Shown here: piece after piece, positions 651 through 36,516 of the stretch | Layout: each line of letters starts with the position of its first letter | Position numbering within the stretch: position 1 is the first letter of the stretch | From: an uncultured Bacteroidales bacterium | GTDB lineage: Bacteria; Bacteroidota; Bacteroidia; Bacteroidales; JAGOPY01 | Direction of reading: 5' to 3' | DNA: 64,000 nucleotides | NCBI GenBank assembly: GCA_964447005.1 | Contig: CAYUQP010000015.1 | Span: forward strand, 22,484-86,483 | Notes under the pieces: generated by a model | Database searches by the model: none | Told to the model about the DNA's origin: nothing | What the model saw: the letters and a program-made list of their open reading frames with translations, nothing else | Translations under genes and position numbers: made by a program

Positions 651-2879
651 ATGAAAACAAACAGATGGAAAAAGAGAATGGCCATATTGCTCATTCTCCT
701 CGCGGGGGGGCATTATATGGCCAGGCCGGGTGTTATTATCACCGGCTTGCTTGATGGAACGCTTGACGGCGGTTGTCCGAAAGTGATTGAAATTTTCGTT
801 ACCGGAACTGAAAACCTGAATTACTACGAGATTTGGAGAAGCCTGAATGGTGCTCCGTTCGGGTCAGGTACCGGTGCGATCGCATCGATGAGCGGCACCT
901 TCACCAATACCTTTGTGTACCTGGTAAAGACCGATCATGTGGACGCCTTCCACGACGTCTTCGGCAATGAAGGCATCTTTGCAAACGTGGTACCGATGGG
1001 CATCATCAACGGAAATGGAAATGACGGTTTCCAGGTAAGGCTGAAGGTGGGATCAGTGGTCATCGACCAGGTGTGGTATGAAAACACTTCGAATTCTTAC
1101 GAGGACAGTTATTGGTATCGAAAGCACGGGACCGGGCCTGACGGCGGCTGGCTGTCGTCCAATTGGGAGACGCCTGGAAATAATGCGCTGGATGGGTTGG
1201 ATCAGGATGGTCTCCAGGCCGCGGTCCCTTTCGGTACTTATGCCATGGCATGGCTGGGAATCTCTGATGACTGGAACAACACCCTGAACTGGTCGCTGGG
1301 AATCATCCCCTCTTTCCAGACCAATGTTCTGGTTATGGAAACGGCGGCTTGCTTCCCGGTAATCACCAATTTTCCGTCGGAACCCGCGGTGTGCATGAAC
1401 CTCACCGTTGCCGACAGCGCCAGCCTGACCGTTCAGGCCGGGAAAGCACTGACAGTGTATGGAGACCTTCGCCTGGACACGCTGACTTCCGGGGAACTCA
1501 ACGATGGGCTGGTGCTTGGCTCCGACCAGGACCAGGTTCAGTCAGGCTCCCTGATCCTGATGGGCAATGTCACCGGCAAGGTCAGGGCACACAGGTACAT
1601 CGGTAAAGATAACGGGTGGCACTTTATTTCCTCCCCGGCAGATACACAGCTCTTTCAGCCTGGATTCGTGCCGGACCCGGTCGATAACACCTACGACCTT
1701 TACTACTGGGAAGAAACCGGCGACCTGTCCTCAGGCTGGGTCAACAGCCGTGATGAAACCGGTCAGTGGAACACCCTTTTCGGGGATGCTTTCATCCCTG
1801 GCAAAGGATACCTGGTGGCTTATTCACCGCTGAATGGCGGCCCGGAGACCAGGACTTTTTCCGGGGCCCCTTTTACCGGCAGCCTGGATTTGCCATTATC
1901 CCACTCCGGGAACTACTGGAACCTGCTGGGCAATCCCTACTCCTGCGCCCTGGATTGGTCTTCTGCAGGAATTAACAAGGAAGCCGTTGCGGGAAGCTCG
2001 ATGTACATCTGGGATCCGTCATGGAATGAAGGCCAGGGAGGTTACCGGATCCACAACGGCGAAATTGGAGTCCCGGCCGGAAACTCACCTTTCATCCCGG
2101 CGCTGCAGGGCTTTTTTGTCCAGTCGTTGGTACCAGGCAATTTAAGCATCGATATCCATACGGATGACCCGCTGGTGCACGGCGACCAGGAGTTCTACAA
2201 GCAGGGCAATGAACTGGCGGGTGAACTGATACGCTTGAGGGTTACTAATGGGAGGTTCTCCGACGAAATCCTGGTCTGCTTTGATGGACGGGCCACCAAC
2301 GAATATGACCCGGAATATGATGCCGTCAAATTGTTCAACGGCCATGAGGGCTGCCCGGAAATATACTCTCTGACCGCTGAGGAGCATAAGCTGGTCATCG
2401 ATATGCTGGGTGAAGCGCCTGTCTCCGTGAATTTGGGACTGTCATACAGTAGCAATGAAGACCTGGCCCTCGAAGCATTCGATTTTGAAGGACTTGAACC
2501 TGCCACGGGGATATTTCTCGAGGACCGGTTGCTGGACACATGGACGGACCTGCGCGAACAGCAGACCTATTCGTTCACTCATGACCCATTGCATACCGAG
2601 GACAGGTTTATACTGCATTTCATGAATACAACGGGCAAAGAAAACCCCAATGCGGATAAGCCAGGCGTCTGGTGTTACGGGAACCAGGTTTATATTGACA
2701 ACCCGGGAAACCAGCCGGCAAGTATTTCAATCTTCACATTGGAGGGAAAGTGCATTCAGCGCTCGGAACTCCGTGAAGGCCGGAGCATGATCACGGTCAG
2801 TGCTTCACCGGGGCTTTATATCCTTAATTTATCGGTTCCTTCGGGCATATCGTATCAGAAGATTTTCATTAACAAATAA
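651..2879 (+). CDS. T9SS-secreted protein (N-terminal lamin-tail-like domain, conserved Bacteroidota central region, type A CTD)
   Basis: Signal-like N-terminus; WHFISSP, PGKGYLV, WNLLGNPY and QGFFV motifs; C-terminal GLYILNL...QKIFINK CTD pattern. Confidence 0.75.
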   Translation: MKTNRWKKRMAILLILLAGGHYMARPGVIITGLLDGTLDGGCPKVIEIFVTGTENLNYYEIWRSLNGAPFGSGTGAIASMSGTFTNTFVYLVKTDHVDAFHDVFGNEGIFANVVPMGIINGNGNDGFQVRLKVGSVVIDQVWYENTSNSYEDSYWYRKHGTGPDGGWLSSNWETPGNNALDGLDQDGLQAAVPFGTYAMAWLGISDDWNNTLNWSLGIIPSFQTNVLVMETAACFPVITNFPSEPAVCMNLTVADSASLTVQAGKALTVYGDLRLDTLTSGELNDGLVLGSDQDQVQSGSLILMGNVTGKVRAHRYIGKDNGWHFISSPADTQLFQPGFVPDPVDNTYDLYYWEETGDLSSGWVNSRDETGQWNTLFGDAFIPGKGYLVAYSPLNGGPETRTFSGAPFTGSLDLPLSHSGNYWNLLGNPYSCALDWSSAGINKEAVAGSSMYIWDPSWNEGQGGYRIHNGEIGVPAGNSPFIPALQGFFVQSLVPGNLSIDIHTDDPLVHGDQEFYKQGNELAGELIRLRVTNGRFSDEILVCFDGRATNEYDPEYDAVKLFNGHEGCPEIYSLTAEEHKLVIDMLGEAPVSVNLGLSYSSNEDLALEAFDFEGLEPATGIFLEDRLLDTWTDLREQQTYSFTHDPLHTEDRFILHFMNTTGKENPNADKPGVWCYGNQVYIDNPGNQPASISIFTLEGKCIQRSELREGRSMITVSASPGLYILNLSVPSGISYQKIFINK

Positions 2880-3224: not shown

Positions 3225-6044
3225 CTATGGCAATATCAGCGTCTTGACAGAAGATGACTTTTCGGAAGTGGCATGAATGAAATATACTCCGGAATTTAAG
3301 CCTTTATTATCTACTGACCAATTGAATTTATGATTTCCTGAATTAAAACTTGCTTTCACTATTTCATCCACTTTCCTTCCCATTATATCGTACACAATGA
3401 TATTCAGCAAACACGGTTCGGTCAATTCCACTTCAATGTTAAAATCCCTGGAAGGGTTCGGATAGACTTTCAGAAAGCCCTCACTGCGGTCATCATTATC
3501 TTCGATACCTGTGCCGATGATTGGCGTGGGGAGCTGGACATCCGTATACATCCGGTATTCGCCGGCCTGAAGGGTCATGGTTGTGGCCAGGCCGGTCACT
3601 TCCAGCGGCTGGCCGGTGAAGTATTCGTACCAGGTGCCTGTATGAGCGAAGCCGGGAACAATGGTCCCTTCCTTGACATCAAAATTTCCGAGAATAAGCA
3701 CGTTCATCGTGCTGTGCGCCAGGGTCATCTTCTTCATGGCGCCGGCAACAAACAGGTCGAAGTCCTCTGTTTCAAAGACAGGCTGTTCAATACGCAGCCC
3801 GATCAATGCGCCGTAAAAGTCCGCAAGGTATTTCCTCCGGCTATCATCCAGGTAATCCCATCTTACCGGTTTTTCACCGGTACGGCCGTTATAGTCGATT
3901 GAATAATCATAACCTATTTCGCCGAACTGCCACACTAATTTCGGGCCGGGGATAGTAAAGAAAAACAATGCATTCATGGCCATCCGGTGAAGGGCTGTGG
4001 CAGTATCTTTTATACTGTAATCACCCTGAATCTTACCCCAGGTTTCGCATTTATAAGTAAGCCGCTCTTCATCATGGCTTTCCATGTAACCAATTACATG
4101 GGGATCGTTCCATCCCCGCTTCTGATAATCAATCCATGAAAAATCCGATTCATTATTGTTCAGGTAAGACATAGCAGCCTGACCATAATTCCAATTCAGG
4201 TTTCCCCACAAAAGAATCCCATAATCTGCCAACTCCTTCTCTTCGGAGTTATCGGTCAGGTGCTCTATTGAAACTATTCCATCCGGATATCTTGCCCAGA
4301 TTGCATCGGCCATTCTTTTGATCAACCTAATCCTGTCAGCATCATAGTTATTTCCCCAGTAATCATCTTCACCCTTATAATTGTTACCATATCCTTTCGT
4401 AAAATCAAAACGGAATCCATCCAACTTATATTCTTTCATCCAATAGGCATTCACACTATCTATAAATTGCTGAGTATAAATACTCTCATGGTTGAAATCA
4501 CTACCACCCCATGATAAATCCGGATTCAGAAAGTTTGTGCTGACATTATACCATGGATTGTCCGGTGTAGGCTTGCTTCCATCAAAATACATCAATACCA
4601 TCGGGCTGGAATTATACGTATGATTAAAAACCATGTCCATAAGTACTGCTATTTCTCGTTTATGGCATTCATCAATAAAATGTTTCAGTTCATTCTTCGG
4701 CCCATAATACTTATCTGGTGCAAAGTAAAATACAGGCTCATAACCCCAGCTGATATTCCCGTTGAATTCATTGAAAGGCATAAGCTCGATAGCATTAACC
4801 CCCAAATCTTCAAGGTAATCAAGCTTTTCTATCAATGCCGCATAGGTATGTTCTGTTGTAAAATCCCTGGTCAGAACTTCATAAATTACAAGATCTGTTG
4901 TGGATACTGGTGAAAAATCTTCTACTTCCCATTCATAAGGTTGCTGGTTTGTTTGAATTACAGTCGCAATCCCTGTGGTCTTTCCATCAGGATAATCTAT
5001 CAAACCGGGATAGATATCCTCTGTAATATACTTATCATGGAATGGATCGCTGGTCTTGTCGGCATACGGGTCCCCCACCCTGATCTTTCCATCGATAAAA
5101 TACTGGTAAACATATTCCTTTCCCGGCTCCAGCCCGTCGATCTCAATCCAGTAACGCATTCCGTCGGGAGTCCGTTTCATGTAATACGCCTCATCGATAT
5201 CCCAGTTATTGAAATCCCCTATTACATAAATGTATTCTTTATAAGGTGCAAAAAGGCTCAGGACCACCGACTGGCTCCCTGTGTAATTCGTACCGTCGAA
5301 AACACCTGCCGGGCGTGCTTCAATTGTAACGGGCGGCCTGACATGATAATAGAAGGAATCAGCCACCATTTGCTCTGAATTTTTAGCAATTGCTTTAATA
5401 CAAAACTTACCATCTTCACTGGCTGTGATAGTATCCCTGAGATAATTACCCGCTACTTGTTTCAGCAATTCATTTCCTTTGTAAAGCATCACTGAATCGG
5501 CCTCATTGGCATTAACTTCGGTGATGAATGACTCCTCAAGCTGCACGATGACGGGGAACTGCTGCGGCAGAGCAAATGAAACCGACAATCCGGGCTCGAA
5601 AACATCGATAAAAATATCCCCTCCCGATTCGGTCTTACCTTCAAGCCATATGCCTCCCACCTGGGCAGCACTCCTGAAAACAAAAGCCATTTGCAAGATC
5701 TTTTCATTGGCCGGAACACCGTAATAATCTCGAATAGCTGGTGTTATATTTAAAGAATAAAGGTCCTGCCCGATCCGTGTCAGCTTTGTTTCAGGCGTAT
5801 TTTCCCCCCAGTCTGTCATCACGTATTGCCAGTCCGAACCACCGGCACTATATTGTGTAATGACGCCGGTATGGGCATAAACATCGCCGGTATAACCTGC
5901 CAGGCCACCGGAGCCAAGCGCCGCATTGAACGTAACGGTCACAGGGTTGGTAACGATGGGCAGCGGCGGGTCGGTGGTTACCAATTGGGCATTGACAATA
6001 ATTCCGATGAGGAATATGCAAAGTGTGACAAGGAGTTTTCTCAT
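3225..6044 (-). CDS. T9SS-secreted GH13 alpha-amylase/pullulanase-like enzyme with CBM48-type domain
   Basis: GH13 motifs DMVFNH, GFRFDFTKG, IEHL, ESHDEE; YIYVIGDFNNW CBM48-like motif; YPNP...GVYFI CTD; start MRKLL supported by promoter at 6063-6070. Confidence 0.9.
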   Translation of the reverse strand: MRKLLVTLCIFLIGIIVNAQLVTTDPPLPIVTNPVTVTFNAALGSGGLAGYTGDVYAHTGVITQYSAGGSDWQYVMTDWGENTPETKLTRIGQDLYSLNITPAIRDYYGVPANEKILQMAFVFRSAAQVGGIWLEGKTESGGDIFIDVFEPGLSVSFALPQQFPVIVQLEESFITEVNANEADSVMLYKGNELLKQVAGNYLRDTITASEDGKFCIKAIAKNSEQMVADSFYYHVRPPVTIEARPAGVFDGTNYTGSQSVVLSLFAPYKEYIYVIGDFNNWDIDEAYYMKRTPDGMRYWIEIDGLEPGKEYVYQYFIDGKIRVGDPYADKTSDPFHDKYITEDIYPGLIDYPDGKTTGIATVIQTNQQPYEWEVEDFSPVSTTDLVIYEVLTRDFTTEHTYAALIEKLDYLEDLGVNAIELMPFNEFNGNISWGYEPVFYFAPDKYYGPKNELKHFIDECHKREIAVLMDMVFNHTYNSSPMVLMYFDGSKPTPDNPWYNVSTNFLNPDLSWGGSDFNHESIYTQQFIDSVNAYWMKEYKLDGFRFDFTKGYGNNYKGEDDYWGNNYDADRIRLIKRMADAIWARYPDGIVSIEHLTDNSEEKELADYGILLWGNLNWNYGQAAMSYLNNNESDFSWIDYQKRGWNDPHVIGYMESHDEERLTYKCETWGKIQGDYSIKDTATALHRMAMNALFFFTIPGPKLVWQFGEIGYDYSIDYNGRTGEKPVRWDYLDDSRRKYLADFYGALIGLRIEQPVFETEDFDLFVAGAMKKMTLAHSTMNVLILGNFDVKEGTIVPGFAHTGTWYEYFTGQPLEVTGLATTMTLQAGEYRMYTDVQLPTPIIGTGIEDNDDRSEGFLKVYPNPSRDFNIEVELTEPCLLNIIVYDIMGRKVDEIVKASFNSGNHKFNWSVDNKGLNSGVYFIHATSEKSSSVKTLILP

Positions 6045-6062
6045 AAAATGTTGAATTTTATG

Positions 6063-6070
6063 CAAAAATA
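6063..6070 (-). promoter_or_regulatory. Bacteroidota housekeeping -7 promoter element (TATTTTTG)
   Basis: Exact TAnnTTTG match 18 nt upstream of the 6044 start. Confidence 0.65.
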
Positions 6071-6136
6071 GGCAATAAAAGAGACTGTCCTAAAAGTCCA
6101 GATCCATTCTTGTTAATCATTCTGACGATTTGAATT

Positions 6137-6389
6137 CCGACGGCTTTTGTCGTCGGGTCTGACAACCTCACCCCCTTTACCCCCTGCCCCCTATTGAGGG
6201 TGTAACAGAACTCTTAAATTAATGGAAAAATCTCTTTGCGAAACTTTGCGGTATCTTTGCGAATCTTTGTGTAACAGCCCTTTAGCTATTACGCAAAGCT
6301 ACACAAAGCAGACACAAAGTTACGCAAAGAGACTTCTGTTACACCCTCACGGGGGGTGAGGTTAAGAAACCGGCGGCTTTAGTCGTCGG
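6137..6389. repeat. Nested palindromic element bracketed by two REP-like hairpins
   Basis: REP copies at 6137-6156 and 6370-6389; inverted arms 6164-6175/6352-6363, 6196-6210/6334-6348 (15 bp perfect) and 6231-6240/6323-6332; inner CTTTGCG/CGCAAAG repeats. Confidence 0.85.
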
Positions 6390-6395
6390 CGATAC

Positions 6396-6432
6396 AAAAA
6401 AAAAGGGGCTGCTCAAACTTATGAGCAGCCCC
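6396..6432 (-). terminator. Rho-independent terminator of the scaffold gene
   Basis: 11-bp stem GGGGCTGCTCA/TGAGCAGCCCC, 6-nt loop, U9 tail on the minus strand. Confidence 0.85.
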
Positions 6433-6456
6433 ATATTTTTTATTAAATAAACGCTA

Positions 6457-9400
6457 CTACTGAACGATGAGCTTCTTCACCGCTTTCACACCGTTCTTGC
6501 CGGTAATGTTCACAAAGTACATTCCGGAAGTGAAACTGGAGGCGTTAAGTTGGATCAGTTCATCTGAGCTGACCGTCATTTGCCTGTTGACGATCGTTCG
6601 CCCGGCGATGTCCATGATATTCAGGGTCACCTCACCGGTAAAGATGTCGCTGTTCATTCTCAGGTAAACATTGTCGTTGGCCGGGTTGGGGAACAGGACA
6701 ACTTCATTGCTGTAATCTACAATGTCGGCAATCCCGAAAGTATAAGGCCCACCGGCAAGCTGGAGGTCACCAAGATCACCGGTATTGCTCCAGTTGCTGC
6801 CCGTTCCGTACCACACACTCTGACCTGTGCGTGCAACACCGTCATCGTTGTCATCATTACCAAGGCTGAATCCGAATGATCTGCCTTTTCCGGGGATAAA
6901 TCCGAATGCATCCCATCCTATTCTTAATTCTACATTATAACCGTCACCTGTCATTACAATCTTCGATTCCCAGTTAGTGAACTGCACACCGTCAGCCTTT
7001 AACCACAAAACGGTGTCAACAAACGGGTCAGTGATCATCTGGATCAACTGGGTATCAAAATCGCCGTCATAAGTGCCATCCCTGTCGTGGTTACCATCGA
7101 TATAATACTCAATGGCATCACTGTTCCACGGGTCAGAAAGAGCAAAGATATTGGCGTCGACGACTTTTACGCCAAGGTACCAGTTGTCCTTATCCCATTT
7201 AGATCCCCAGGTGACTGTATTATCAGTTGTTCCTTCAACGACGATTGCCGATGAATATGTTAGATTGAATTCAGACAGGTCACCGTCGATGGTTACCGGG
7301 GTATCGGTATAATCGGAATAAGCCACTCCGTCGTCAGCCGGTTCACTGGTAAAGGTATAAGCGCCGGTCATGCAGTCGAAGCCGACCCTGTAACGACCGG
7401 TAACGGCGGGGATTGCTGCACCGTTAAGTGTGGCAGTTCCTGCCGGGAAATCACCGGCGCCCCACATCACGGCTTCACTCATATCTTTTCTGAAAAACAG
7501 ATCCTGATTTTCAAACATCTCAAAGTTGCCCACATAGTAGGTTGGCTGGTCTGACGGGGTATTCAGCAGGACATCACCCACGTTTGCGTTGTATAAAGTA
7601 ATACAGCCGCAGGATAATGTACCAAACAGCAGGTCACCGAAGGCGGAAGTAACCTGGTAGTTTTGCAGGCCACCGTTCCATGCCATCTGGTAATCGATAC
7701 TTGTTCCGGAATCACTGTCGCTGATGATCAGGTCAAATCCGATCTGATTGCCCATTACTGCTGTTACGCCAAGTTCTGACCAGGGGATGGCCAGTTCCGC
7801 GGTATAGCCATCACCAAGCGGCTTCACGGCAAATCCAAGCTGGATACCTTCGATTGTATCCGGATGGACTACGATGACCACGGGTCCGGCAAAGCGGATA
7901 TGCAGGTCATTTTCATCATAGGCGCCGCCGTTCTTATTTCCATCGATGAAGAGCTCGCCCATTTCCATTGGGGTCAGTGCTCCGTCCATCACATCCAGCC
8001 CGACGAACAAATATTCATCATTATAGGTCACGCCGAAATAAATCAAGTTAGGATCTTCGGTCAGTGTACCGTTGACCACATTGCTGATGTTCTGATCGAT
8101 ATTCCAGTCGGCTTCGTCAAGCTGTCCGTCAACTACCATGTTGAACACTTTGGGAGCGATCACCGCATTCCCCAGGCGGACGAACTTGAAGTCGCCGGAT
8201 TTGCAATTGAAATAGATCTGGTATTTACCACCGGGAACGTCAATCAAAGCGGTCGGGTCCTGCACACCGGTTCCTTCCGGGAAGGTACCGCCCCATACAT
8301 TGGCAAATGTCTGGTCGGCATCCATGCGGAAGAGGAGCTGGGTGCTGGAGGTAAAGTTATATTCCAGGGAGAACTGGCTCGGGTACATCGGGTCGCGGAC
8401 CATCCATACATCCGTTGGAGGATCGCCGGCGCCCCAGCCGTTGAAGTCGCCCACGAGGCCGATCTCACCGCAGAAGTTCGGATTGGCGGTGAAGTTGTAT
8501 TCAAAGGTCGTGGTGTTGAAAGTCACATCATATTTGCCGGCCACCAGCGGGATGTTCGGGCCGTTGGGCGTACCGGTCCCGCTCGGGAAGGTATTGTTAC
8601 CCCAGTTGGCACTCCAATCCTTATTTTCACGGAATTTGACATCCGAATTGGCAAACCATGAACGGGACAGTTTCCAGAGGTTTGGATTCATCGCATCCCT
8701 GTTCATCGGGACATCGCCGTTCCAGCCGTTGAACGCGCCGATCATGCTGATGGCGCCGCTGGCCGCAGTAAAGGTGTAAGCACCGGTGGAGCAGTTAAAG
8801 GTCACCATGTAATCGGTGGTCAGGCCTGATCCATCAACAGGCGCCATGATATTCGGGCCGTCCTGGGTAGCTGTACCGGACGGAAAGTCAGCGCCACCCC
8901 AGTTTACGCCCCAGTCGCTATTCTGGCGGAATTTCATTTCCACGATGCCGTCGGCATTGCCATCAGCGGAAGCATCCAGGGTAAGAATGACCGACCATTC
9001 ATTCGGGCTGGCCATGTTACGGGTCATCCAGTAATCTTCGGCCCATCCGTTGAATTCACCGATCAGGCCAATGTTACCGCAGGTGCTGGTGAAATTGTAA
9101 GCGCCTGTTGAGCAGTTAAACTCGACCTTGTAGGAACCAACCGGCACCGGAACATTCGGGCCGTCCTGGGTAGCTGTCCCTGACGGGAAATCAGCACCGC
9201 CCCAGTTCACTCCCCAGTCGGAATTCTGGCGGAATTTCAATTCTACAATGCCGTCGCTGTTACCGTCGCTGCCGGCCGTGAAAATAACGATAGCGCTCCA
9301 GACATTCGGATCCATGGCGCTGCGGGTCATCCACTCGTCAGCGGCCCAGCCGTTGAATTCGCCGATCATGCCGATCTCACCGCAAGTGGCCTGGAAACTG

Positions 9401-9753
9401 TATGACCCCGTGCTGCAGTTAAAGGATACGAGATAATTTCCATACGGGACCGGGATATTTGGCCCGTCCGGCGTAGCAGTTCCTGAAGGAAAATCAGCTC
9501 CGCCCCAGTTGGTTGCCCAATCGGAATTGGCACGGAATTTCATTTCAATAATACCATCGGCATTGCCATCATCGCCGGCGCCAACCGACAGAATCACCGT
9601 GAAAAGTTCGGGCTGTTCAGGGTTACGGACCATCCAGTAATCGGCGGCCCAGCCGTTAAATTCGCCAATGAGACCGACTCGTCCGCACTGGCCCATCACT
9701 TCAGTTGTAATAAATGAAGCGAGAATCATTAAGAATAGTAAAGATTTTTTCAT
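6457..9753 (-). CDS. T9SS-secreted non-catalytic multi-module protein: five tandem SusE/F-like beta-sandwich modules, a CBM9-like domain, a sixth degenerate module, a second CBM9-like domain and a CTD
   Basis: Repeats of CGx(I/V)GLIGEFNGW...MKFRxNxDWxxNWG...FNC; two VDGxLxExxW/IDGDLSE...YIDGN...GFxLxxxDxD CBM9-like units; FPNP...GMYFV CTD. Confidence 0.85.
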   Translation of the reverse strand: MKKSLLFLMILASFITTEVMGQCGRVGLIGEFNGWAADYWMVRNPEQPELFTVILSVGAGDDGNADGIIEMKFRANSDWATNWGGADFPSGTATPDGPNIPVPYGNYLVSFNCSTGSYSFQATCGEIGMIGEFNGWAADEWMTRSAMDPNVWSAIVIFTAGSDGNSDGIVELKFRQNSDWGVNWGGADFPSGTATQDGPNVPVPVGSYKVEFNCSTGAYNFTSTCGNIGLIGEFNGWAEDYWMTRNMASPNEWSVILTLDASADGNADGIVEMKFRQNSDWGVNWGGADFPSGTATQDGPNIMAPVDGSGLTTDYMVTFNCSTGAYTFTAASGAISMIGAFNGWNGDVPMNRDAMNPNLWKLSRSWFANSDVKFRENKDWSANWGNNTFPSGTGTPNGPNIPLVAGKYDVTFNTTTFEYNFTANPNFCGEIGLVGDFNGWGAGDPPTDVWMVRDPMYPSQFSLEYNFTSSTQLLFRMDADQTFANVWGGTFPEGTGVQDPTALIDVPGGKYQIYFNCKSGDFKFVRLGNAVIAPKVFNMVVDGQLDEADWNIDQNISNVVNGTLTEDPNLIYFGVTYNDEYLFVGLDVMDGALTPMEMGELFIDGNKNGGAYDENDLHIRFAGPVVIVVHPDTIEGIQLGFAVKPLGDGYTAELAIPWSELGVTAVMGNQIGFDLIISDSDSGTSIDYQMAWNGGLQNYQVTSAFGDLLFGTLSCGCITLYNANVGDVLLNTPSDQPTYYVGNFEMFENQDLFFRKDMSEAVMWGAGDFPAGTATLNGAAIPAVTGRYRVGFDCMTGAYTFTSEPADDGVAYSDYTDTPVTIDGDLSEFNLTYSSAIVVEGTTDNTVTWGSKWDKDNWYLGVKVVDANIFALSDPWNSDAIEYYIDGNHDRDGTYDGDFDTQLIQMITDPFVDTVLWLKADGVQFTNWESKIVMTGDGYNVELRIGWDAFGFIPGKGRSFGFSLGNDDNDDGVARTGQSVWYGTGSNWSNTGDLGDLQLAGGPYTFGIADIVDYSNEVVLFPNPANDNVYLRMNSDIFTGEVTLNIMDIAGRTIVNRQMTVSSDELIQLNASSFTSGMYFVNITGKNGVKAVKKLIVQ

Positions 9754-9942
9754 AGAACAGATTATTAATTAATTAATTGATGTTTTGGACTAATTCTTTG
9801 GTGCTAAAATACTATATAATTTCAAATCCGGATCATTAAATTTCATAAAAATTCATAATAGTTAACCGGGAAAAATCAATTAAAAAAATGTTAATTTAGG
9901 CACCTGTTTAGTAAGTTAGTCTATAATCTAATTAAACATCTT

Positions 9943-12900
9943 ATGAATAATCATTTACGCAGTTTATTGAAAGTGGGATTAACGGGATTGATCATGATTT
10001 TTTGCATGACCGGCCTGTACGCCCAGGAGAAAAAAGTCTCCGGAGTTGTTAAAGATGCCGAAACAGGCGAAACCCTGATCGGGGTGAATGTTACGGCTGC
10101 TACCAACAAAACGCTGGGTACTGTGACGGATATCGACGGAAATTATAGCATTGCCGTTCCCGATACGGTCAACGCGCTGAGTTTCTCATTCGTCGGTTAC
10201 ACGACCCAGGTTATAGAAATTACCTCGGGAAAAATCGACGTAAAGCTATCTCCGGGGCAGCAGCTCACGGAAGTGGTCGTGGTCGGTTATGGCACGCAGA
10301 AAACCCGTGAAGTGACCAGCGCTGTCTCCAGCGTGAAAGCGGAAGACTTCAACCGCGGCAACATCAGCGACCCCATCCAGTTGATCCAGGGCAAGGTTGC
10401 AGGGCTTTCTATTGCCAAGCCGGGAAATGACCCCAACCAGGATTTCACCATTCGCCTGAGAGGCCTCTCAACCTTCGGTTCCAACACCGAGCCGCTGATC
10501 GTCATCGACGGGATCCCGGGTGCCAACATGAAATCCATCGACCCGCAGGACATCGTTTCCATCGATGTACTGAAAGATGCATCCGCAGCGGCAATTTATG
10601 GTACCAGGGCCGCTTCGGGGGTTATCCTGATCACCACAAAAAAAGGTGAATTCGTGCCGGGAGGGAAAACGTTCAACGTGGAATTCGGTGCTTCTCTGAC
10701 GTATGAAACGATCGCCAGAACGGTCAGCAACCTCAGCGCGGACGATTACCTTTCACTTACGGAAGGGGATTCGACGAACCATTTCGGCTACACCACCGAC
10801 TGGTTCGATGAGATCACCAGCCCGTCGCTGTCGCAAACCTATAACCTGGCCATGAGCGGCGCCGATGAAAACACGAACTACCGCGTGGCCGCCAACTACA
10901 GGGAGGTGGACGGCGTGGTCATGGGAACCGGCTTCAACCAGCTAAACGGCCGGTTCAACCTGTCGCAGAAAGCTTTAAAGGACAAACTGACCTTCGATTT
11001 AAACCTGTCAACAACTCTACGGAATGAGAAATACTCTCCTTCGGAAGCCCTGCAGTATGCCACAATTTTTAATCCTACTGCCCCTATAACTGCTGAAGAC
11101 CCGTTCTCCGAAGAATGGGGAGGCTATTTCCAGCGTCCTGCCTTCTATTTCTATAATCCTGTCGCCATCATCGAACAAAACGATCTCGATGGCAAGAAAT
11201 ACAACATCCAGGGCGGATTCAAAGGCACCTACGAGATCATCAAGGGATTGAAAGCTTCGGCTTTTTATTCACTGACTTCAAATAATGACCTTTACGGGAC
11301 CTACTACAGTAAAAATTCGCTCTGGACGGCGCACGGGACGGGCAGCCATGAAGGATTCGCACGCCGTGAGACCAAAGACTATTTCAACCATATGCTGGAG
11401 TTGACGGGATCCTATGAAAAGACCATCGAAAAAGTCACTTTCTCAGTGCTGGGCGGCTACTCCTGGCAACAGGCCACTAATGAAGGCTTCTGGGCTTTTG
11501 GCAAAGGGTTCCTCTCGGATGACTTTTCTTACAACGATTTGGGCTCCGCATCCGGTGACCTCCCGAATAACCAGATGTTTGACAGCTGGAAGGACCGGAC
11601 GACACTGATCGGTTTCTATGCCCGTGCAACAGCCAACTATGATAATGGCATATTCCTTACCGCGAACTTCAGGCGCGACGGCTCATCAATGTTCGGTGAA
11701 AACGCGAAGTGGGGGAATTTCCCCGGGGTCAGTGCCGGGGTTGACCTGGCCAGGTATATTGAGATACCTTATGTGGACCGGTTGAAGGTCCGCGGAGGCT
11801 ATGGCGTTACCGGAAATCTCCCGCCAAATCCCTATCTGTCGAAGCTTTTGTACAATGCCACCAATGATTACTTCTTCTATAATGGAGAATATATTCAGGC
11901 TTACGGTCCCACCCGGAACAATAACCCTGATCTGCAATGGGAAACCAAGCATGATCTTGGCTTTGGACTTGATTTTGCAGTGCTCGATTACAGGATCACC
12001 GGTTCTATTGATTACTACCAGAGCAACAGCGAGGACCTGATCCTGGAGTATGATGTTCCCGTGCCGCCTTATCCCGCTTCAAGGATGTGGCTTAACCTTG
12101 GTGAGTTAAAGAATTCAGGCCTGGAATTCAATGTACAGTACCAGACCTTATCAACGCGGGAATTCGTTTGGAACACCGAGCTCAATTTTGCAAAATTCTT
12201 CGAAACAACCCTGGTAAAGATAACGGATACGCTTACAGGAAACCAAAGTACGCTGTGGTTCGGTCAGCTTGGAGATCCGGGCCTTATCGGAATACAAACG
12301 ATCAAACTCGAAGAAGGAGGCCCGGTAGGACAAATCTATGCACCCATATATGTTTACACTGATACAGCGGGGGCAATGTGGTACGAGACCATTCTGAGAG
12401 ACAGTACCGGCGCTCAGATTGGTACAGATACAACCAAGTCGGGCGTACCAAAAGACGGTTACAGTGTTATCGGAAACGGACTGCCCAAATTCCAGTTCGG
12501 ATGGGGAAATACCTTTAGCTACAAGGGGTTCTACCTGAACTTCTTCCTCAGGGGAGTTTTCGGACACTCGCTCGTCAATGTCAACAATGCCAAATTCGGC
12601 GTACCAAAAGCCCTGGGTATCCAGAGTGGTATGGACATTATCAATGATTATGCCGATGTGACCGATGGCCCTTCTTATTCTGATATTCACGTTGAAAAAG
12701 CCAATTTTGTCCGGCTCGACAACTGGTCGCTTGGGTACAACTTCAAACTGAAGAAGAATGAATACGTGGAAAGCCTGAAAGTTTACTTTTCAGGCCAGAA
12801 CCTGTTCACGATCACCAATTACAGCGGTGTTGATCCCGAAGTGCGTTACGAAGACTCGGCCGATAATAACAATGCCCTGGCTCCCGGCCTCGACCGGCAG

Positions 12901-12954
12901 AATACGTATTTCAGCACCCGGACCTTCACCCTGGGCGTGAATGTTGTTTTTTAA
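9943..12954 (+). CDS. susC: SusC/RagA TonB-dependent transporter
   Basis: N-terminal carboxypeptidase-regulatory-like domain, EVVVVGYG, PLIVIDG, IDVLKDASAAAIYGTRAASGVILITTKKG plug motif, C-terminal Phe. Confidence 0.97.
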   Translation: MNNHLRSLLKVGLTGLIMIFCMTGLYAQEKKVSGVVKDAETGETLIGVNVTAATNKTLGTVTDIDGNYSIAVPDTVNALSFSFVGYTTQVIEITSGKIDVKLSPGQQLTEVVVVGYGTQKTREVTSAVSSVKAEDFNRGNISDPIQLIQGKVAGLSIAKPGNDPNQDFTIRLRGLSTFGSNTEPLIVIDGIPGANMKSIDPQDIVSIDVLKDASAAAIYGTRAASGVILITTKKGEFVPGGKTFNVEFGASLTYETIARTVSNLSADDYLSLTEGDSTNHFGYTTDWFDEITSPSLSQTYNLAMSGADENTNYRVAANYREVDGVVMGTGFNQLNGRFNLSQKALKDKLTFDLNLSTTLRNEKYSPSEALQYATIFNPTAPITAEDPFSEEWGGYFQRPAFYFYNPVAIIEQNDLDGKKYNIQGGFKGTYEIIKGLKASAFYSLTSNNDLYGTYYSKNSLWTAHGTGSHEGFARRETKDYFNHMLELTGSYEKTIEKVTFSVLGGYSWQQATNEGFWAFGKGFLSDDFSYNDLGSASGDLPNNQMFDSWKDRTTLIGFYARATANYDNGIFLTANFRRDGSSMFGENAKWGNFPGVSAGVDLARYIEIPYVDRLKVRGGYGVTGNLPPNPYLSKLLYNATNDYFFYNGEYIQAYGPTRNNNPDLQWETKHDLGFGLDFAVLDYRITGSIDYYQSNSEDLILEYDVPVPPYPASRMWLNLGELKNSGLEFNVQYQTLSTREFVWNTELNFAKFFETTLVKITDTLTGNQSTLWFGQLGDPGLIGIQTIKLEEGGPVGQIYAPIYVYTDTAGAMWYETILRDSTGAQIGTDTTKSGVPKDGYSVIGNGLPKFQFGWGNTFSYKGFYLNFFLRGVFGHSLVNVNNAKFGVPKALGIQSGMDIINDYADVTDGPSYSDIHVEKANFVRLDNWSLGYNFKLKKNEYVESLKVYFSGQNLFTITNYSGVDPEVRYEDSADNNNALAPGLDRQNTYFSTRTFTLGVNVVF

Positions 12955-12981: not shown

Positions 12982-14547
12982 ATGAAAAAGTTCTTAATCA
13001 CCCTGAAAATATTCCTGGCCATCGCACTACTGGTGATGGTCCAACCTTCCTGCACCAAACTGGATGAAGAAGTCTATTCCGACCTGACTGCCGATAATTT
13101 CTTTTCAAATCCGGACAATTTGGTTTATGCCTTTGGTAAAGCATACACTTCATTGTACGACCTGGTCGGGCATAAATACGGTATGCAGGGCAGCGAATGC
13201 GGCACCGACATGCTGATCGTTCCCCAGCGGGGAGGCGACTGGCTCGACGGCGGTGAATGGCACCGCTTTCACCGTCATACCTGGACCTCGCAGGATAATT
13301 ATTTCAACCACTGGTGGACCAATATCTACGCCAACGGGGTCAGTACAGTAAACCGGCTCATCTATGAGTTCGAAAGCCTTGAAGGAGTTGATGTTACGCC
13401 GGCAGTTTCAGAACTGCGGGCCCTGCGCGCTCTCTACTACTACTGGCTGGTCGATAAATTCGGCAACGTGCCGATCGTGGATGACTTCAACGGCCCTGCC
13501 AAGCCGTTCACTTCCTCACGACAGGAAGTGCACGACTGGGTTGTAAGTGAGTTGCTCGAATCCATGCCATACTTATCCAGGGAAACCGGGCTGCCGATGT
13601 ACGGCAGGATCAATTACTACACAGCTCAGATGATCCTTGCCAAAATGTACCTCAATGCAGCGGTTTTCACCGGTACGGCACAATGGGAAAAAGCCCTGGC
13701 AGCCTGCGATACGATCATCAATTCCGGATTGTACAACCTTAACGCCAATTACTTTGACAATTATATCGCCGATGCGTCCGGTTCCAGGGAGGTGATCCTG
13801 GCCGTTCCTTTTGATGAATTACTGGCAGACGGATTCGAAATCCACCTCTTCTCGCTGCATTATGGATTGCAGCAGAAATACGGCTTCACGGCCGCTACAT
13901 GGAACGGTATCTGCTTCCAGGAAAGCTTCTTCAACCTGTTCGGCGCGGAAGATCTCCGCCGGAACGGTATGCTTTTCGGGCCGCAATTCTTCGACGACGG
14001 GACCCCGGTAACCGACCCGAGCTGGGAAACCTTCAGTCCCACCCAACCTTTTGACCCGGACGGAGCCCAGGTCAACCTCACACCGTTCGTTAACCAGCTC
14101 GAACCCAACTGCCTCAGGCAATGCGGCGCGCGTGTGGCCAAATTCCCCTTCATCGCCGCCAGTCCAAGGTATATCAGCAACGATTTCCCGATCTTCCGCT
14201 ATGCCGATGTGCTGCTTATGAAAGCCGAATGCCTGCTGCGTCTTGGACAGGCCGGTGATGCATTGCCGATTGTGAACGAAGTCAGGGCCCGCGCCAGCGC
14301 AGGTGATCTTGATGAGGTCACCTTCCTTGACCTGCTTGAAGAGCGCGGCCGCGAGCTATTTTGCGAAGGGCACCGCCGGTCGGACATGATCCGCTTTGCA
14401 GACGAGATCCCGGCTGATAATCCGCTGAATTATTTCGCTCCCAGGTGGGAAAAGGAAAATGTCACGGAGCCTTTCCGCAGCCTGTGGCCTATCCCGCAGA
14501 GCAAACTGGATGTGAACGAGAATCTGGAACAGAATACGGGGTACTAA
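12982..14547 (+). CDS. susD: SusD/RagB glycan-binding lipoprotein
   Basis: Lipobox QPSC, LRALYYYWLVDKFGNVP, FRYADVLLMKAE, ERGRELFCEGHRRSDMIRF, terminal QNTGY. Confidence 0.96.
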   Translation: MKKFLITLKIFLAIALLVMVQPSCTKLDEEVYSDLTADNFFSNPDNLVYAFGKAYTSLYDLVGHKYGMQGSECGTDMLIVPQRGGDWLDGGEWHRFHRHTWTSQDNYFNHWWTNIYANGVSTVNRLIYEFESLEGVDVTPAVSELRALRALYYYWLVDKFGNVPIVDDFNGPAKPFTSSRQEVHDWVVSELLESMPYLSRETGLPMYGRINYYTAQMILAKMYLNAAVFTGTAQWEKALAACDTIINSGLYNLNANYFDNYIADASGSREVILAVPFDELLADGFEIHLFSLHYGLQQKYGFTAATWNGICFQESFFNLFGAEDLRRNGMLFGPQFFDDGTPVTDPSWETFSPTQPFDPDGAQVNLTPFVNQLEPNCLRQCGARVAKFPFIAASPRYISNDFPIFRYADVLLMKAECLLRLGQAGDALPIVNEVRARASAGDLDEVTFLDLLEERGRELFCEGHRRSDMIRFADEIPADNPLNYFAPRWEKENVTEPFRSLWPIPQSKLDVNENLEQNTGY

Positions 14548-24267: not shown

Positions 24268-24332
24268 CCAACGACTAAAGCCGTTGGTTCCGAGTGTGTT
24301 ACAAAATATCAACCGACGGCTTTAGTCGTCGG
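24268..24332. repeat. Inverted pair of REP-like palindromes
   Basis: ccaacgactaaagccgttgg (24268-24287) and ccgacggctttagtcgtcgg (24313-24332). Confidence 0.85.
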
Positions 24333-24439
24333 CGATGCGAAATAAAGAGGTTGCTCTGATTTTTGTGGCAGCTTCTCAAACGAAAAAATATAACTTACGG
24401 CCTTGATAAACCCTCAGTTTTCGAAAAATATATAAATAG

Positions 24440-27400
24440 ATGGATTCACAAGCTTTTGACGCGGTAATATTCGACCTCGACGGGGTGATCACCAAAACGG
24501 CGCTGGTGCACAGCGCTGCCTGGAAAAAGATGTTCGATGCCTATCTCCGGGAACGGGAATCGAAATACGGTGAACCCTTCAGGGAATTCACACAAAAAGA
24601 CGACTACCTGCCGTATGTGGATGGTAAACCCCGCTACAAAGGGGTTGAATCGTTCCTCGCCTCGCGTGGCATCAGCATTCCTTACGGCGATCCCTCGGAT
24701 GATCCGTCAGTGGAAACCATCTGCGGCATCGGGAACCGGAAAAACATCGCTTTCAATGAGGCGCTCCGGTCGGATGGCGTGGAGACTTATGAATCCACCG
24801 TTGAGCTGATCCGCCGGCTCAAAGAGGAAGGCATCCGGGTCGGGGTGGCCTCCTCGAGTAAAAACTGCAGGCAGGTGCTCGAAACAGCCGGGCTGCTCGA
24901 TTGGTTCGAAACCCGCGTCGACGGCGAGGTCAGCGCCGAACTGGGGCTGAAAGGAAAGCCCGAACCGGATATTTTCACAGTGGCTGCCGATAACCTGGGC
25001 GTCAGCTACGACAGGGCCGTGGTGGTGGAAGATGCCGTATCAGGCGTGCAGGCAGGCAAAAAAGGAAATTTCGGACTGGTCCTGGGCATAGCAAGGGAAG
25101 AAAATGAACAGGAACTTTATGCCAATGGAGCCGATATCGTTGTAAAAGACATCGGTGAAATAGGCTTTGATGGAATACTGAACTGGTTTAAACAAGGCAT
25201 CTTCCTGGATAACTGGTCGATAAAATACCATGACTATGTCGCTGAAAAGGAAAAAACCCGGGAAGCCTTGCTGACCGTGGGCAACGGCTTCTTCGGAACC
25301 CGCGGCGCCATGCCGGAAGCCGAGCCGGGAAAATTCAACTATCCGGCAACCTACATGGCTGGCGTTTATAACCGCCTGGTCTCAAAAGTCGGCGACCGGG
25401 ATATTGAAAACGAGGATTTTGTCAACGTGGTTAACTGGGTTCCGGTCACATTTAAAATCAATGACGAAGACTGGTTCGATATCAATAAGACCCACATCCT
25501 TGAGGTAAAAAGGGTGCTGACATTCAACAACGGGTTGCTGGTGCGCAGGCTCGTGGTCAGGGACGGACATGGCAGGGAAACACTGATCGTGACCCGCCGG
25601 ATTGCCAGTATGGAGAACCCCAATATGGCTGCCCAGGAATACGCCATCACCCCCTTGAATTATACTGCCAGGATCACCGTGCGCTCCGGTCTTTACGGGG
25701 ACCATATCAACGCCGGGGTCGACCGCTACAGCCAGCTCAACCAGAAGCACATCGAACCGATTTTGCTCGGCTCCGAGGAAAACCACCAGTATATCGTGGT
25801 GAAAACCACAAGGTCGAACACGGTCGTAGCGGTTACGGCCAGGGTTAAAGTCTTCGAGGACGGGGACAGGATTTATGTCCATTTCAGCAAGAACCATTCG
25901 GCCGGAAGATCCAGGATTGAATTTTCGAAAAACGTGGAGCAGGGAATGGAACTGAAGGTACAGAAGATTGTATCGCTGTATCATAACCTGGGCAGGAAAG
26001 AAGAGGATCCCCTTGAAAAGGCACTGGATATCTGTAAGAAGTATAAGACCTTCGACGAGGTCCTTGAAAAATCGTCGCGCAAATGGGAAGAGATCTGGGA
26101 CCGCATCGATATACGGCTGGTGGGAGACCGCCTGGCACAAAAGCTGCTCAGGATGCACCTTTACCACACGCTGGTCACCACCTCGCCTCATAATACCGGC
26201 ATCGACGCAGGCATTCCCGCACGGGGGCTTCACGGTGAAGCCTACAGGGGACATATCTTCTGGGATGAACTGTTCATCCTTCCGGTCTACAATATGCACT
26301 TCAGGGAAATAGCCCGGTCGGTCCTGCTTTACCGTTACAGGAGACTGGACGAAGCACGCAAATACGCCGCCGAATACGGATACCAGGGCGCGATGTTTCC
26401 CTGGCAAAGCGGCAGCAACGGCCGGGAAGAGACCCAGGTGATCCATCTCAACCCGCTGTCAGGCGAATGGGGCCCCGATCACAGTTCCCTGCAGCGGCAT
26501 GTCTCGCTGGCCATTGCTTATAACGTCTGGCAGTACTTTCATTTTACGGGGGATATGAAATTCATGGAAGATTACGGTGGAGAGCTCTTATTTGAGATCT
26601 GCCGTTTCTGGGCGAGCAAAAGTAAACTCAACAGGGCCACCGGAAGATATGAGATCATCAAGGTGATGGGACCGGATGAATTTCATGAAAAATACAAGGA
26701 CACCGAAGAAGGCGGGCTGAAAGACAATGCCTACACCAACATCATGGTGGCCTGGATGTTCAGCAAGGCTAACCAGTTACTCGAAAAGATGGAGCCTGGG
26801 AAAAAAGCAGTGCTGTGCGATAAGCTCAGGCTCACCGGCGGCGAGACCGAGCGCTGGAATGATATCGCCTCGCGGCTGAACCTGGTGATCTCTCCCGAAG
26901 GGATCATCGCACAATATGACGGGTATTTCGATCTGCATGAACTTGATTTTGAATACTACCGTGCCAGATATGGCAATATTTACCGGATGGACCGACTGCT
27001 GAAAGCGGAAGGCAAAACACCCGATGAATATAAAGTGGCAAAACAGGCCGATACGCTGATGTCCTTCTATAACCTGAGCAAGGAAGAGGTCGATGGGATC
27101 CTGGGCCGCATGGATTACCACCTGCCGGAGGATTACCTGATGCGGAACCTGCAGTATTACCTGGCCAGGACCTCCCATGGCTCCACGCTGAGCCGCGTTG
27201 TCCATTCACAGCTCGCAAACCTCACCGGTGACCACCGGCTGAGCTGGGAGCTATACCTGGACGCCCTGACCAGCGATTACGCAGATATCCAGGGAGGTAC
27301 TACCGCCGAAGGCATTCACGCCGGCGTCATGGCCGGAACGGTCTGGGTGGCCCTGGCTTCCTTCGCAGGACTGAACCTCCACGGCGATTATCCCCGCTTC

Positions 27401-27595
27401 GATCCCAACCTGCCCGTGCACTGGCGCAGGATCAGCTTCTCCTTCACCTTCAGGGAGGATGATTACGAATGCGAAGTGACCCCCTGCTGTGTCCGCCTCC
27501 GTATCGACCGCGCAACAGCCGGCACGGCAAAAATCGGGATCAGGAACAAAGAATTTGAAATAATAACGGGTGAATGGGTGGAATTCGAAATCTAG
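24440..27595 (+). CDS. Fusion of a beta-phosphoglucomutase-family HAD domain and a GH65 disaccharide phosphorylase
   Basis: HAD motifs FDLDGVIT, GKPEPD, VEDAVSG; GH65 motifs GNGFFGTRG, RGLHGEAYRGHIFWDE, GPDEFHE, KQAD, HGSTLS. Confidence 0.92.
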   Translation: MDSQAFDAVIFDLDGVITKTALVHSAAWKKMFDAYLRERESKYGEPFREFTQKDDYLPYVDGKPRYKGVESFLASRGISIPYGDPSDDPSVETICGIGNRKNIAFNEALRSDGVETYESTVELIRRLKEEGIRVGVASSSKNCRQVLETAGLLDWFETRVDGEVSAELGLKGKPEPDIFTVAADNLGVSYDRAVVVEDAVSGVQAGKKGNFGLVLGIAREENEQELYANGADIVVKDIGEIGFDGILNWFKQGIFLDNWSIKYHDYVAEKEKTREALLTVGNGFFGTRGAMPEAEPGKFNYPATYMAGVYNRLVSKVGDRDIENEDFVNVVNWVPVTFKINDEDWFDINKTHILEVKRVLTFNNGLLVRRLVVRDGHGRETLIVTRRIASMENPNMAAQEYAITPLNYTARITVRSGLYGDHINAGVDRYSQLNQKHIEPILLGSEENHQYIVVKTTRSNTVVAVTARVKVFEDGDRIYVHFSKNHSAGRSRIEFSKNVEQGMELKVQKIVSLYHNLGRKEEDPLEKALDICKKYKTFDEVLEKSSRKWEEIWDRIDIRLVGDRLAQKLLRMHLYHTLVTTSPHNTGIDAGIPARGLHGEAYRGHIFWDELFILPVYNMHFREIARSVLLYRYRRLDEARKYAAEYGYQGAMFPWQSGSNGREETQVIHLNPLSGEWGPDHSSLQRHVSLAIAYNVWQYFHFTGDMKFMEDYGGELLFEICRFWASKSKLNRATGRYEIIKVMGPDEFHEKYKDTEEGGLKDNAYTNIMVAWMFSKANQLLEKMEPGKKAVLCDKLRLTGGETERWNDIASRLNLVISPEGIIAQYDGYFDLHELDFEYYRARYGNIYRMDRLLKAEGKTPDEYKVAKQADTLMSFYNLSKEEVDGILGRMDYHLPEDYLMRNLQYYLARTSHGSTLSRVVHSQLANLTGDHRLSWELYLDALTSDYADIQGGTTAEGIHAGVMAGTVWVALASFAGLNLHGDYPRFDPNLPVHWRRISFSFTFREDDYECEVTPCCVRLRIDRATAGTAKIGIRNKEFEIITGEWVEFEI

Positions 27596-33957: not shown

Positions 33958-33980
33958 ACATTTAACGACATTTTAAAAAT

Positions 33981-34006
33981 AGGCTTCGTAACTGAAGCCT
34001 TTTTTT
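33981..34006 (+). terminator. Rho-independent terminator after the hexaheme gene
   Basis: AGGCTTC-gtaact-GAAGCCT followed by a T-run. Confidence 0.75.
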
Positions 34007-34007
34007 A

Positions 34008-34015: not shown

Positions 34016-34029
34016 AAAAAACAAAGCCT

Positions 34030-36512: not shown

Positions 36513-36516
36513 CACT

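Follow-up and report, generated by a model that had tools for sequence, protein, structure and literature searches.

In the starch utilization system (Sus) of gut Bacteroides, every surface component is, to our knowledge, a lipoprotein. SusE and SusF of Bacteroides thetaiotaomicron (PDB codes 4fem, 4fch and 4fe9; Pfam family PF16411), whose genes lie downstream of susD in a starch polysaccharide utilization locus (PUL), carry an N-terminal lipid, an Ig-like SusE domain (PF14292) and two or three binding modules. Both proteins are built of tandem X25 modules (PMC9112005). The protein described here, referred to as the scaffold, is encoded on the reverse strand at positions 6457–9753 of a 64-kb stretch of DNA from an uncultured Bacteroidales bacterium (contig CAYUQP010000015.1; the whole stretch is referred to as the window), in an open reading frame (ORF) of 1098 residues with an ATG start. 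It resembles SusE and SusF in its non-catalytic, tandem modules of predicted X25 type and in its place beside susCD in a starch PUL, but differs in having a signal peptidase I signal, six modules, two family 9 carbohydrate-binding modules (CBM9) and a C-terminal type IX secretion system (T9SS) domain (CTD), with any tether at the opposite end; moreover, its gene is divergent from susC and its own modules fall below the PF16411 threshold. With a probability of about 0.68, the scaffold is a T9SS-exported, non-catalytic, multivalent α-glucan binder that serves the starch PUL. A T9SS-cargo branch of the X25/SusE-F module superfamily is a more fitting description, as several features that define the SusE/F family proper are missing: the lipobox, the SusE domain, the position after susD and a direct PF16411 match.

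Three other described systems resemble parts of the scaffold. Sas20 and Sca5 of Ruminococcus bromii (7rpy) are non-enzymatic, multi-X25 starch-adherence proteins whose ligand-binding Trp residues align with those of the scaffold modules (see below); however, they belong to a Gram-positive amylosome with cohesin-dockerin and sortase attachment, and have neither CBM9 nor T9SS. Their clamshell binding site is built from a pair of X25 lobes, and no binding was seen with a lobe on its own (PMC9112005). The CBM9 domains of Thermotoga maritima Xyn10A (1i82) and Caldicellulosiruptor kristjanssonii Xyn10C-GE15A (7nwn) share the fold (TM-scores normalized to the target, TMt, of 0.81–0.83), the PF06452 family and the aromatic clamp of the second scaffold CBM9, but are appended to xylanases and bind β-glycan chain ends, whereas the scaffold CBM9 domains are part of an enzyme-free protein of an α-glucan PUL and flank a degenerate X25 module. 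Finally, in the surface glycan-binding protein (SGBP) BT3088 (SGBPdex, 9sji and 9sje), modules of this type likewise occur several times in tandem, and the module-family profile has no better sequence match in the PDB. BT3088 differs in belonging to a dextran (α-1,6) PUL and in not being T9SS cargo, and in each module only the N-terminal half is aligned; we take BT3088 to be a lipoprotein within the SusCD utilisome.

The scaffold consists of a signal peptide, five modules (M1–M5), CBM9a, a degenerate sixth module (M6), CBM9b and a type A T9SS CTD, in that order. All 1098 residues could be assigned to binding folds or sorting signals, and no enzyme family was found among the Pfam or NCBIfam matches of the whole protein. 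With every residue assigned, and with no Foldseek matches of residues 527–1010 other than CBM9 and further binding folds, a hidden catalytic domain can be rejected, in agreement with the initial annotation, which was made by a model from the sequence without database searches and had recognized none.

The signal peptide (residues 1–21; 9691–9753, reverse strand), assigned by eye as a Sec signal, is of the signal peptidase I type, with a predicted cut before Gln22. The N-terminus reads MKKSLLFLMILASFITTEVMG followed by QCG, the signal peptide ending in EVMG directly before the cut, and an AM[SG]QCG motif at this point is common to the scaffold orthologs. An N-terminal Gln after signal peptide cleavage is known in Bacteroidota as the ‘Q-rule’, with which Gln22 is consistent. 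Since the residue before the Cys is Gln, and not Gly, Ala or Ser, there is no lipobox, as had been annotated, and the scaffold is ruled out as a lipoprotein. A further reason is that the Cys following Gln22 opens the repeated module: it recurs at module starts and pairs with the Cys of the FNC motif. M1 starts at residue 22, and no N-terminal SusE Ig-like domain was detected (PF14292 not matched). At the other end, a short linker and the type A CTD occupy residues 1011–1098 (6460–6723, reverse strand). The CTD matches span residues 1020–1098, the extreme C-terminus, and both PF18962 (E-value 7.8e-15, 55.4 bits, cutoff 27) and TIGR04183 (E-value 6.8e-11, 42 bits, cutoff 23) are above their cutoffs, so that the type A CTD proposed initially is borne out.

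A hidden Markov model (HMM) built from the six putative modules detected exactly six copies in the scaffold (residues 22–122, 123–223, 224–330, 331–423, 426–526 and 714–803), each with a domain E-value of 1e-38 to 1e-47. The initial annotation of six Trp-rich modules of about 100 residues is correct in number, but only five are Trp-rich (3–5 Trp each); M6, located between the CBM9 domains, is degenerate, with one Trp and no FNGW. The repeats are also visible in the coding DNA as direct repeats with a 303-nt (101-codon) period. In this DNA, the M1–M3 copies are 73–84% identical. The identity of the modules to M1 is 36–68%. Motifs shared by the modules include C-G-x-I-G-L-I-G-E-F-N-G-W, K-F-R-x-N-S-D-W-x-x-N-W-G, F-P-S-G-T and Y-x-V-x-F-N-C-x-T-G-x-Y-x-F.

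M2 was modelled with AlphaFold2 from an alignment of related modules, with a mean predicted local distance difference test score (pLDDT) of 98.0. In a Foldseek search of the PDB with this model, the top match was SusF (4fe9; E-value 8.8e-5, query-normalized TM-score of 0.74, rmsd 2.2 Å), followed by the second X25 module of Sca5 (7rpy), SusE (4fem and 4fch, ranked third and fourth) and then the CBM48 of AMPK-β. These top matches are all binders of α-glucans (starch or glycogen). The modules are therefore predicted to adopt an X25/SusE-F-like β-sandwich fold; a fold like that of the SusE/F modules had been set beforehand as a test of the initial annotation, and was found at the level of predicted structure.

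Candidate binding residues were identified by comparison with Sca5, in which W620 and W661 form a conserved starch-binding platform (PMC9112005). In the HMM alignment of the scaffold module profile to 7rpy, their counterparts in the modules are the Trp of FNGW and the Trp of SDW, respectively, at a single offset (chain index + 477). Conservation was assessed in 20 aligned sequences, the window protein and 19 orthologs, among which the putative stacking Trp pair of M1–M4 is 90–100% conserved. M1 (residues 22–123; 9385–9690; this and the following modules on the reverse strand) is a predicted X25/SusE-F-like β-sandwich (HMM E-value 5.7e-46) with the Cys pair C23/C113 and putative stacking residues W35 and W79, which, with W83, are kept in 90–95% of the orthologs. 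M2 (residues 124–223; 9085–9384), the modelled module, has putative stacking residues W136 and W180, which are 100% conserved together with W184. M3 (residues 224–330; 8764–9084), 73% identical to M2, contains a 7-residue loop insertion and putative stacking residues W237 and W281. The Cys pair is missing from M4 (residues 331–425; 8479–8763), whose loop is shorter; with W344 and W380 at the putative stacking positions, it is the best conserved module among the orthologs (mean identity 0.73). In M5 (residues 426–526; 8176–8478), W440 is kept at the first putative stacking position, and the second is occupied by F483.

M6 (residues 715–802; 7348–7611; HMM E-value 3.9e-38) is a degenerate X25-like module in which both stacking aromatics are absent, the alignment showing YNANVG instead of FNGWAA (Asn at the first position) and Glu at the SDW Trp. 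Little or no variation is seen among the orthologs at C715, C717, W764 and C794, so M6, though probably a structural spacer, has a conserved sequence. Since M6 lacks both aromatics, the valency of the scaffold would not exceed about five sites of the X25 type and one or two of the CBM9 type. The first module Cys and the FNC Cys are absent together in the same two orthologs in each of M1, M2 and M3, a pattern expected of an intramodule disulfide; we infer from the aligned sequences both this disulfide and a side-by-side surface geometry of the Trp residues.

The sequence link between the modules and SusE/F is indirect. Single modules searched against Pfam at E-values up to 10 gave noise only (AMPK1_CBM at 0.12, SSrecog and ASFV p17). 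The six-module profile matched the PDB weakly, with 7rpy best (E-value 0.035) and SusF at 9.5; a deeper profile of the module family matched BT3088 best (E-value 1.9e-11), with SusF at 0.53, so a direct link to SusE/F is unsupported. However, 53 of the 110 aligned related module instances match PF16411. The modules can thus be regarded as remote homologs of SusE/F, connected indirectly through PF16411-positive relatives and the X25 fold.

The modules differ in their apparent age. M1–M3 share 65–73% amino acid identity among themselves, compared to 55–62% with their positional orthologs, which suggests that these three have been shaped by gene conversion or recent re-duplication. In contrast, M4 shows 73% identity on the orthology diagonal and 46–49% off the diagonal. 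By sequence comparison, M4, M5 and M6 are old, each being clearly orthologous by position across species.

Both CBM9-like domains noted initially score above the PF06452 (CBM9_1) gathering score of 23.4 bits. CBM9a (residues 527–714; 7612–8175, reverse strand) matches with 50.4 bits (E-value 3.3e-13), and CBM9b (residues 803–1010; 6724–7347, reverse strand) with 61.6 bits (E-value 1.2e-16). The AlphaFold2 model of residues 527–1010 (pLDDT 86.3) superposes with T. maritima CBM9-2 (1i82; Foldseek E-value 2.4e-11, TMt 0.81, rmsd 2.6 Å) and with C. kristjanssonii CBM9.3 (7nwn and 7nwo, TMt 0.81–0.83; 7nwn alone, TMt 0.81, rmsd 2.2 Å). Lower matches of this region include a putative carbohydrate-binding protein of Bacteroides uniformis, CBM9-fold haem subunits, Sas6 and SusF, and no enzyme fold is found among them. 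CBM9 sandwiches the terminal sugar of a chain, with preference for the reducing end, between two aromatic residues, which are W71/W175 in TmCBM9-2 and Y89/W191 in CBM9.3 (PMC8280721). In phmmer alignments of CBM9b to 7nwn (E-value 1.3e-8) and 1i82 (E-value 7.3e-8), both clamp Trp residues are aligned, corresponding to W876 and W988, which are invariant among the orthologs. In CBM9a, the equivalent residues in the alignments to 1i82 and 7nwn are M596 and Y699, an incomplete aromatic clamp. Based on these residues, CBM9b looks competent for binding, whereas CBM9a is doubtful.

The scaffold gene is located head-to-head with susC, as initially annotated, with 189 bp of AT-rich sequence between the two genes (9754–9942). 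This intergenic region contains no TAnnTTTG motif (the Bacteroidota −7 element), and a scan for the σ70 consensus performed no better than with shuffled sequence. The susC gene (9943–12954, forward strand; TIGR04056, E-value 1.4e-194) is followed by susD (12982–14547, forward strand), which matches SusD_RagB (E-value 5.8e-31) and NF033071 SusD (E-value 1.4e-48, below its cutoff). Beyond susD there is no gene for a SusE/F-type lipoprotein: what comes next, 157 bp away on the opposite strand, is a gene for a GH13 enzyme. Downstream of the scaffold gene lies a gene for a 946-residue enzyme with GH13, CBM48 and a type A CTD (3225–6065, reverse strand; PF00128 2.8e-19, CBM_48 1e-5, PF18962 1.2e-10), which matches the α-amylase 8xx9 in the PDB with an E-value of 7.7e-173. 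A strong hairpin resembling an intrinsic terminator (6405–6432, reverse strand; 11-bp stem with 8 GC pairs, then a T-run) lies 25 nt past the scaffold stop codon. Given this intervening hairpin, an operon of the scaffold with the downstream GH13 gene was judged unlikely, and the scaffold gene is probably its own transcription unit.

The window PUL as a whole contains six GH13 genes (one of them for a cyclomaltodextrinase), together with one gene for a fusion of GH65 and HAD and another for an MFS sugar transporter. The fusion (24440–27595, forward strand; 1051 residues) combines an N-terminal HAD hydrolase of the β-phosphoglucomutase type with a complete GH65 enzyme resembling maltose phosphorylase. 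The window encodes six or more CTD proteins, which points to an active T9SS; no T9SS machinery gene (SprA/Sov, PorV, PorU etc.) was found within the 64 kb.

A scan that covered one genome per GTDB species identified 22 related loci. Of these, 21 are full or near-full length, with 49–79% identity, and all 22 are in metagenome-assembled genomes (MAGs) labelled Bacteroidales, Lentimicrobiaceae, Marinilabiliales or Bacteroidetes/Bacteroidota. The divergent arrangement, with susC and susD on one side and the scaffold followed by the GH13-CTD gene on the other, is kept wherever the contig is long enough, with one exception: in Marinilabiliales UBA12394 (locus L016, 5419–13312), susC, susD and the ortholog are on the same strand, which places the ortholog in the classical SusE position. 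The ortholog is thus divergent from susC, like the window gene, in every other related locus that shows susC.

The wider family is much larger. A search with M1–M5 returned 1,465 proteins, and most of the top matches are collinear proteins of about 590 residues with 35–39% identity (E-values around 1e-120). These carry PF16411 together with PF18962, and ‘SusF/SusE family outer membrane protein’ and ‘T9SS type A sorting domain-containing protein’ are common names among them. Two of them from Saprospiraceae or other Bacteroidota, P0017 and P0028, score 102.7 and 82.9 bits against PF16411 (gathering score 27.5 bits) and share 35–37% identity with the scaffold over all of M1–M5. Such five-module proteins resemble the scaffold in the collinear M1–M5, the type A CTD and the head-to-head position to susCD, which is also observed in Saprospiraceae, with a GH13 gene downstream in the locus of P0028 (L027). 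They differ in lacking the CBM9a-M6-CBM9b segment and the Cys pairs, and in having GxATPGGW at the first Trp where the scaffold has GEFNGW. The five-module plus CTD architecture beside susCD is therefore common and already annotated automatically, and the rarity claimed in the initial annotation was overstated; the specific variant here is the CBM9a-M6-CBM9b insertion, present in about 20 MAG species.

The module family as a whole comprises 4,328 representatives at 50% identity (E-value ≤1e-3; 2,257 at ≤1e-10), with 2–10 modules per protein. Among six long relatives that were scanned, three combine modules with GH13 and a CTD (P0189, P0213 and P0267) and one combines a SusE N-terminal domain with modules and CBM20 (P0197). 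The GH13 fusions tie the module family to α-glucan enzymes.

Several further observations concern these domains outside the scaffold. Metagenomic proteins of 497 residues (P0131 and P0134–P0140) are 62–66% identical to the CBM9b part only; P0134 contains two CBM9_1 stretches and a CTD but no X25 modules, indicating that the CBM9-CTD unit also exists as a stand-alone T9SS protein. In the window itself, an ORF at 62477–63625 (forward strand) encodes 382 residues with a signal peptide, Gly/Asn-rich repeats and one C-terminal X25-like module (CGQISLIGEFSGWSLDH..., HMM domain E-value 2.3e-29). It lies far from the PUL, adjoining RNase G, and has no CTD and no Pfam or NCBIfam match.

Beyond domain layout, predicted folds, residue conservation, synteny and GH13 association, we infer the ligand, the anchoring and the cooperation with SusCD and GH13 as follows. 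To judge from its signals, the scaffold would be exported by Sec and cut by signal peptidase I before Gln22. It would then cross the outer membrane through the T9SS by means of its type A CTD, with PorV, the shuttle for type A CTD cargo (PMC12618676), acting in this role, and the CTD would be removed. In Porphyromonas gingivalis, a covalent bond joins cargo of this type to anionic lipopolysaccharide (LPS) (PMC9143113). The scaffold would most likely be joined to the cell surface by its new C-terminus. Such a tether would place CBM9b nearest the membrane and M1 farthest from it, a polarity that is the reverse of that of SusE/F. M1–M4, and probably M5, would act as two-aromatic platforms for helical α-1,4-glucan, bound with avidity, and CBM9b could grip a glucan chain end, preferentially the reducing end. 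The scaffold would thereby take on the polysaccharide-tethering job of the SusE/F lipoproteins, which were not found after susD in the window PUL, and starch or glycogen would be kept at the surface beside the T9SS-exported GH13 enzyme and the SusCD importer.

This role in α-glucan binding is supported by the α-glucan PUL, the GH13-fused relatives and the structural matches to starch and glycogen binders. A number of points weigh against it. The scaffold has no PF16411 match, either with the whole protein (E-value ≤0.01) or with single modules (E-value ≤10), and the PF16411-positive relative P0035 had no match in the PDB by phmmer. Among PDB sequences, the one best matched by the module-family profile is BT3088, an SGBP of a dextran PUL, so the linkage specificity within this fold is not fixed. 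Characterized CBM9 domains bind β-linked cellulose, xylan and xyloglucan (PMC8280721), not starch, and no binding data for the CTD-bearing subfamily were found in the literature searched. In addition, T9SS cargo may be anchored or delivered into the medium (PMC10202324), and since the scaffold has neither a lipid anchor nor a SusE N-terminal domain, contact with SusCD, if there is any, would need another basis. The interpretation given in the initial annotation, of a T9SS-anchored substitute for SusE/F that grips starch granules or glycogen and feeds the T9SS amylase and SusCD, is on balance partly supported, by prediction and context.

Sequence by itself is compatible with either an anchored or a released protein. 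A scaffold with the same fold and ligand that is released would be a soluble multivalent starch binder that coats or cross-links granules or glycogen particles, and it could serve as a bridge between cells and granules and help to gather the co-secreted GH13 enzyme, as in an amylosome without cohesin-dockerin. This is unlikely, but it is the strongest of the alternatives. The type A cargo RemA of Flavobacterium johnsoniae appears to be attached to the surface first and then released (PMC12618676), the non-enzymatic R. bromii Sas20 and Sca5 work within extracellular complexes (PMC9112005), and an eight-module relative in Flavobacterium pallidum is encoded outside any PUL, as might be expected of a free agent. 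The LPS linkage of the P. gingivalis cargo, however, argues for retention; a binder that diffuses freely would amount to a public good, of doubtful return to its producer; and the tight, conserved pairing with susCD fits a role at the cell surface better. Because this pairing is so consistent, a surface-tethered scaffold is considered more likely than a released one.

A less probable alternative concerns the ligand. The X25 modules might bind α-glucan and the CBM9 pair β-glycans of plant cell walls (chain ends of cellulose, xylan or xyloglucan), so that the scaffold would hold the cell on starch-bearing plant debris; in an extreme form, the whole scaffold would target a non-starch glycan. All characterized CBM9 domains bind β-linked glucans or xylans and their reducing ends (PMC8280721), and the clamp of CBM9b is intact and invariant. 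The match of the module profile to the dextran SGBP BT3088 and the location of a Saprospiraceae relative near GH53 and GH5 genes point in the same direction. On the other hand, the PUL is uniformly directed at α-glucans (six GH13, GH65 and cyclomaltodextrinase), and the related modules are fused to GH13, not to β-glycanases. The CBM9 clamp also recognizes terminal glucose and binds free glucose (PMC8280721), which would allow an α-glucan end. Dual targeting is thus rather improbable, and the α-glucan binder tethered at the surface remains the preferred reading. A cryptic catalytic or granule-disrupting activity is very improbable: degradative capacity is reported for some SusE-like proteins of B. 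thetaiotaomicron (PMC8211771), but all scaffold residues belong to binding folds or sorting signals and no enzyme family or fold was matched.

Several neighbouring features of the window are also of note. Between the scaffold terminator and the GH13-CTD gene lies a nested palindrome (6120–6400), in which 51-nt arms of CTTTGCG/CGCAAAG repeats are enclosed within 32-nt and 12-nt inverted repeats. A 32-nt piece of it recurs at 24311–24342; the palindrome is not present in the orthologous loci, and no Rfam family was above threshold in the 6000–6500 region. It may be an insertion resembling miniature inverted-repeat transposable elements or repetitive extragenic palindromes, or a regulatory hairpin. 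On the other side of the GH13-CTD gene, a 742-residue protein (651–2879, forward strand) has a weak type A CTD (TIGR04183 25.5 bits, cutoff 23) and is otherwise unmatched among Pfam, NCBIfam and PDB sequences. It adjoins the GH13-CTD gene also in three related loci (L002, L006 and L025), and is probably another uncharacterized T9SS component of the PUL.

Other type A CTD proteins of the window are a 1379-residue S8 subtilase and a 640-residue PKD-domain protein (43693–49815, forward strand), and an M14 carboxypeptidase with a MAM domain (53901–56273, reverse strand). The S8/PKD stretch has a GC content of 0.39–0.43, compared to about 0.50, with positive GC skew, consistent with a possible horizontal acquisition. 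Just past the PUL, a multihaem cytochrome c cluster (32941–38656, forward strand; Cytochrome_C7, c3 and NapC/NirT-like) with a DUF5777 outer-membrane β-barrel hints at an anaerobic lifestyle of the host, or one of extracellular electron transfer.

T9SS tags on PUL-encoded proteins are familiar outside Bacteroides, so the scaffold should be plausible, rather than surprising, to a PUL specialist. What makes it interesting is a widely distributed alternative to SGBPs of the lipoprotein type, along with the possibility that CBM9 has an α-glucan role; no experimental study of T9SS-tethered SusE/F-like binders, of SGBPs in T9SS settings or of SusE-like proteins in Saprospiraceae was found in the literature searched, a weak negative since few subscription journals were covered. 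The name ‘SusF/SusE family outer membrane protein’ is being given to proteins that do not have the lipoprotein features of that family. The locus and its relatives represent a recurrent alternative to the gut Bacteroides paradigm in sediment, wastewater and marine Bacteroidota, in which the binder, with up to six X25 modules plus CBM9 domains, and one amylase are both predicted T9SS cargo. It is tentatively proposed, at somewhat less than even odds, that much longer T9SS cargo tethered at its C-terminus, and not lipidated SusE/F docked in the SusCD utilisome, serves as the SGBP in many environmental Bacteroidota. The lineage of the window would have added the CBM9 clamp proximal to the membrane; four or five distal X25 sites would then hold helical stretches, and CBM9 would capture chain ends near SusCD. 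The questions raised are whether T9SS-tethered binders replace SusE/F, whether the CBM9 clamp acts on α-glucan ends, and what benefit high valency brings on granular or particulate α-glucans, such as the glycogen of bacterial necromass. If this proposal is correct, assembly in the style of the utilisome would not hold everywhere, and a Sus-like uptake system would have the T9SS as an integral component and not only as an exporter of enzymes.

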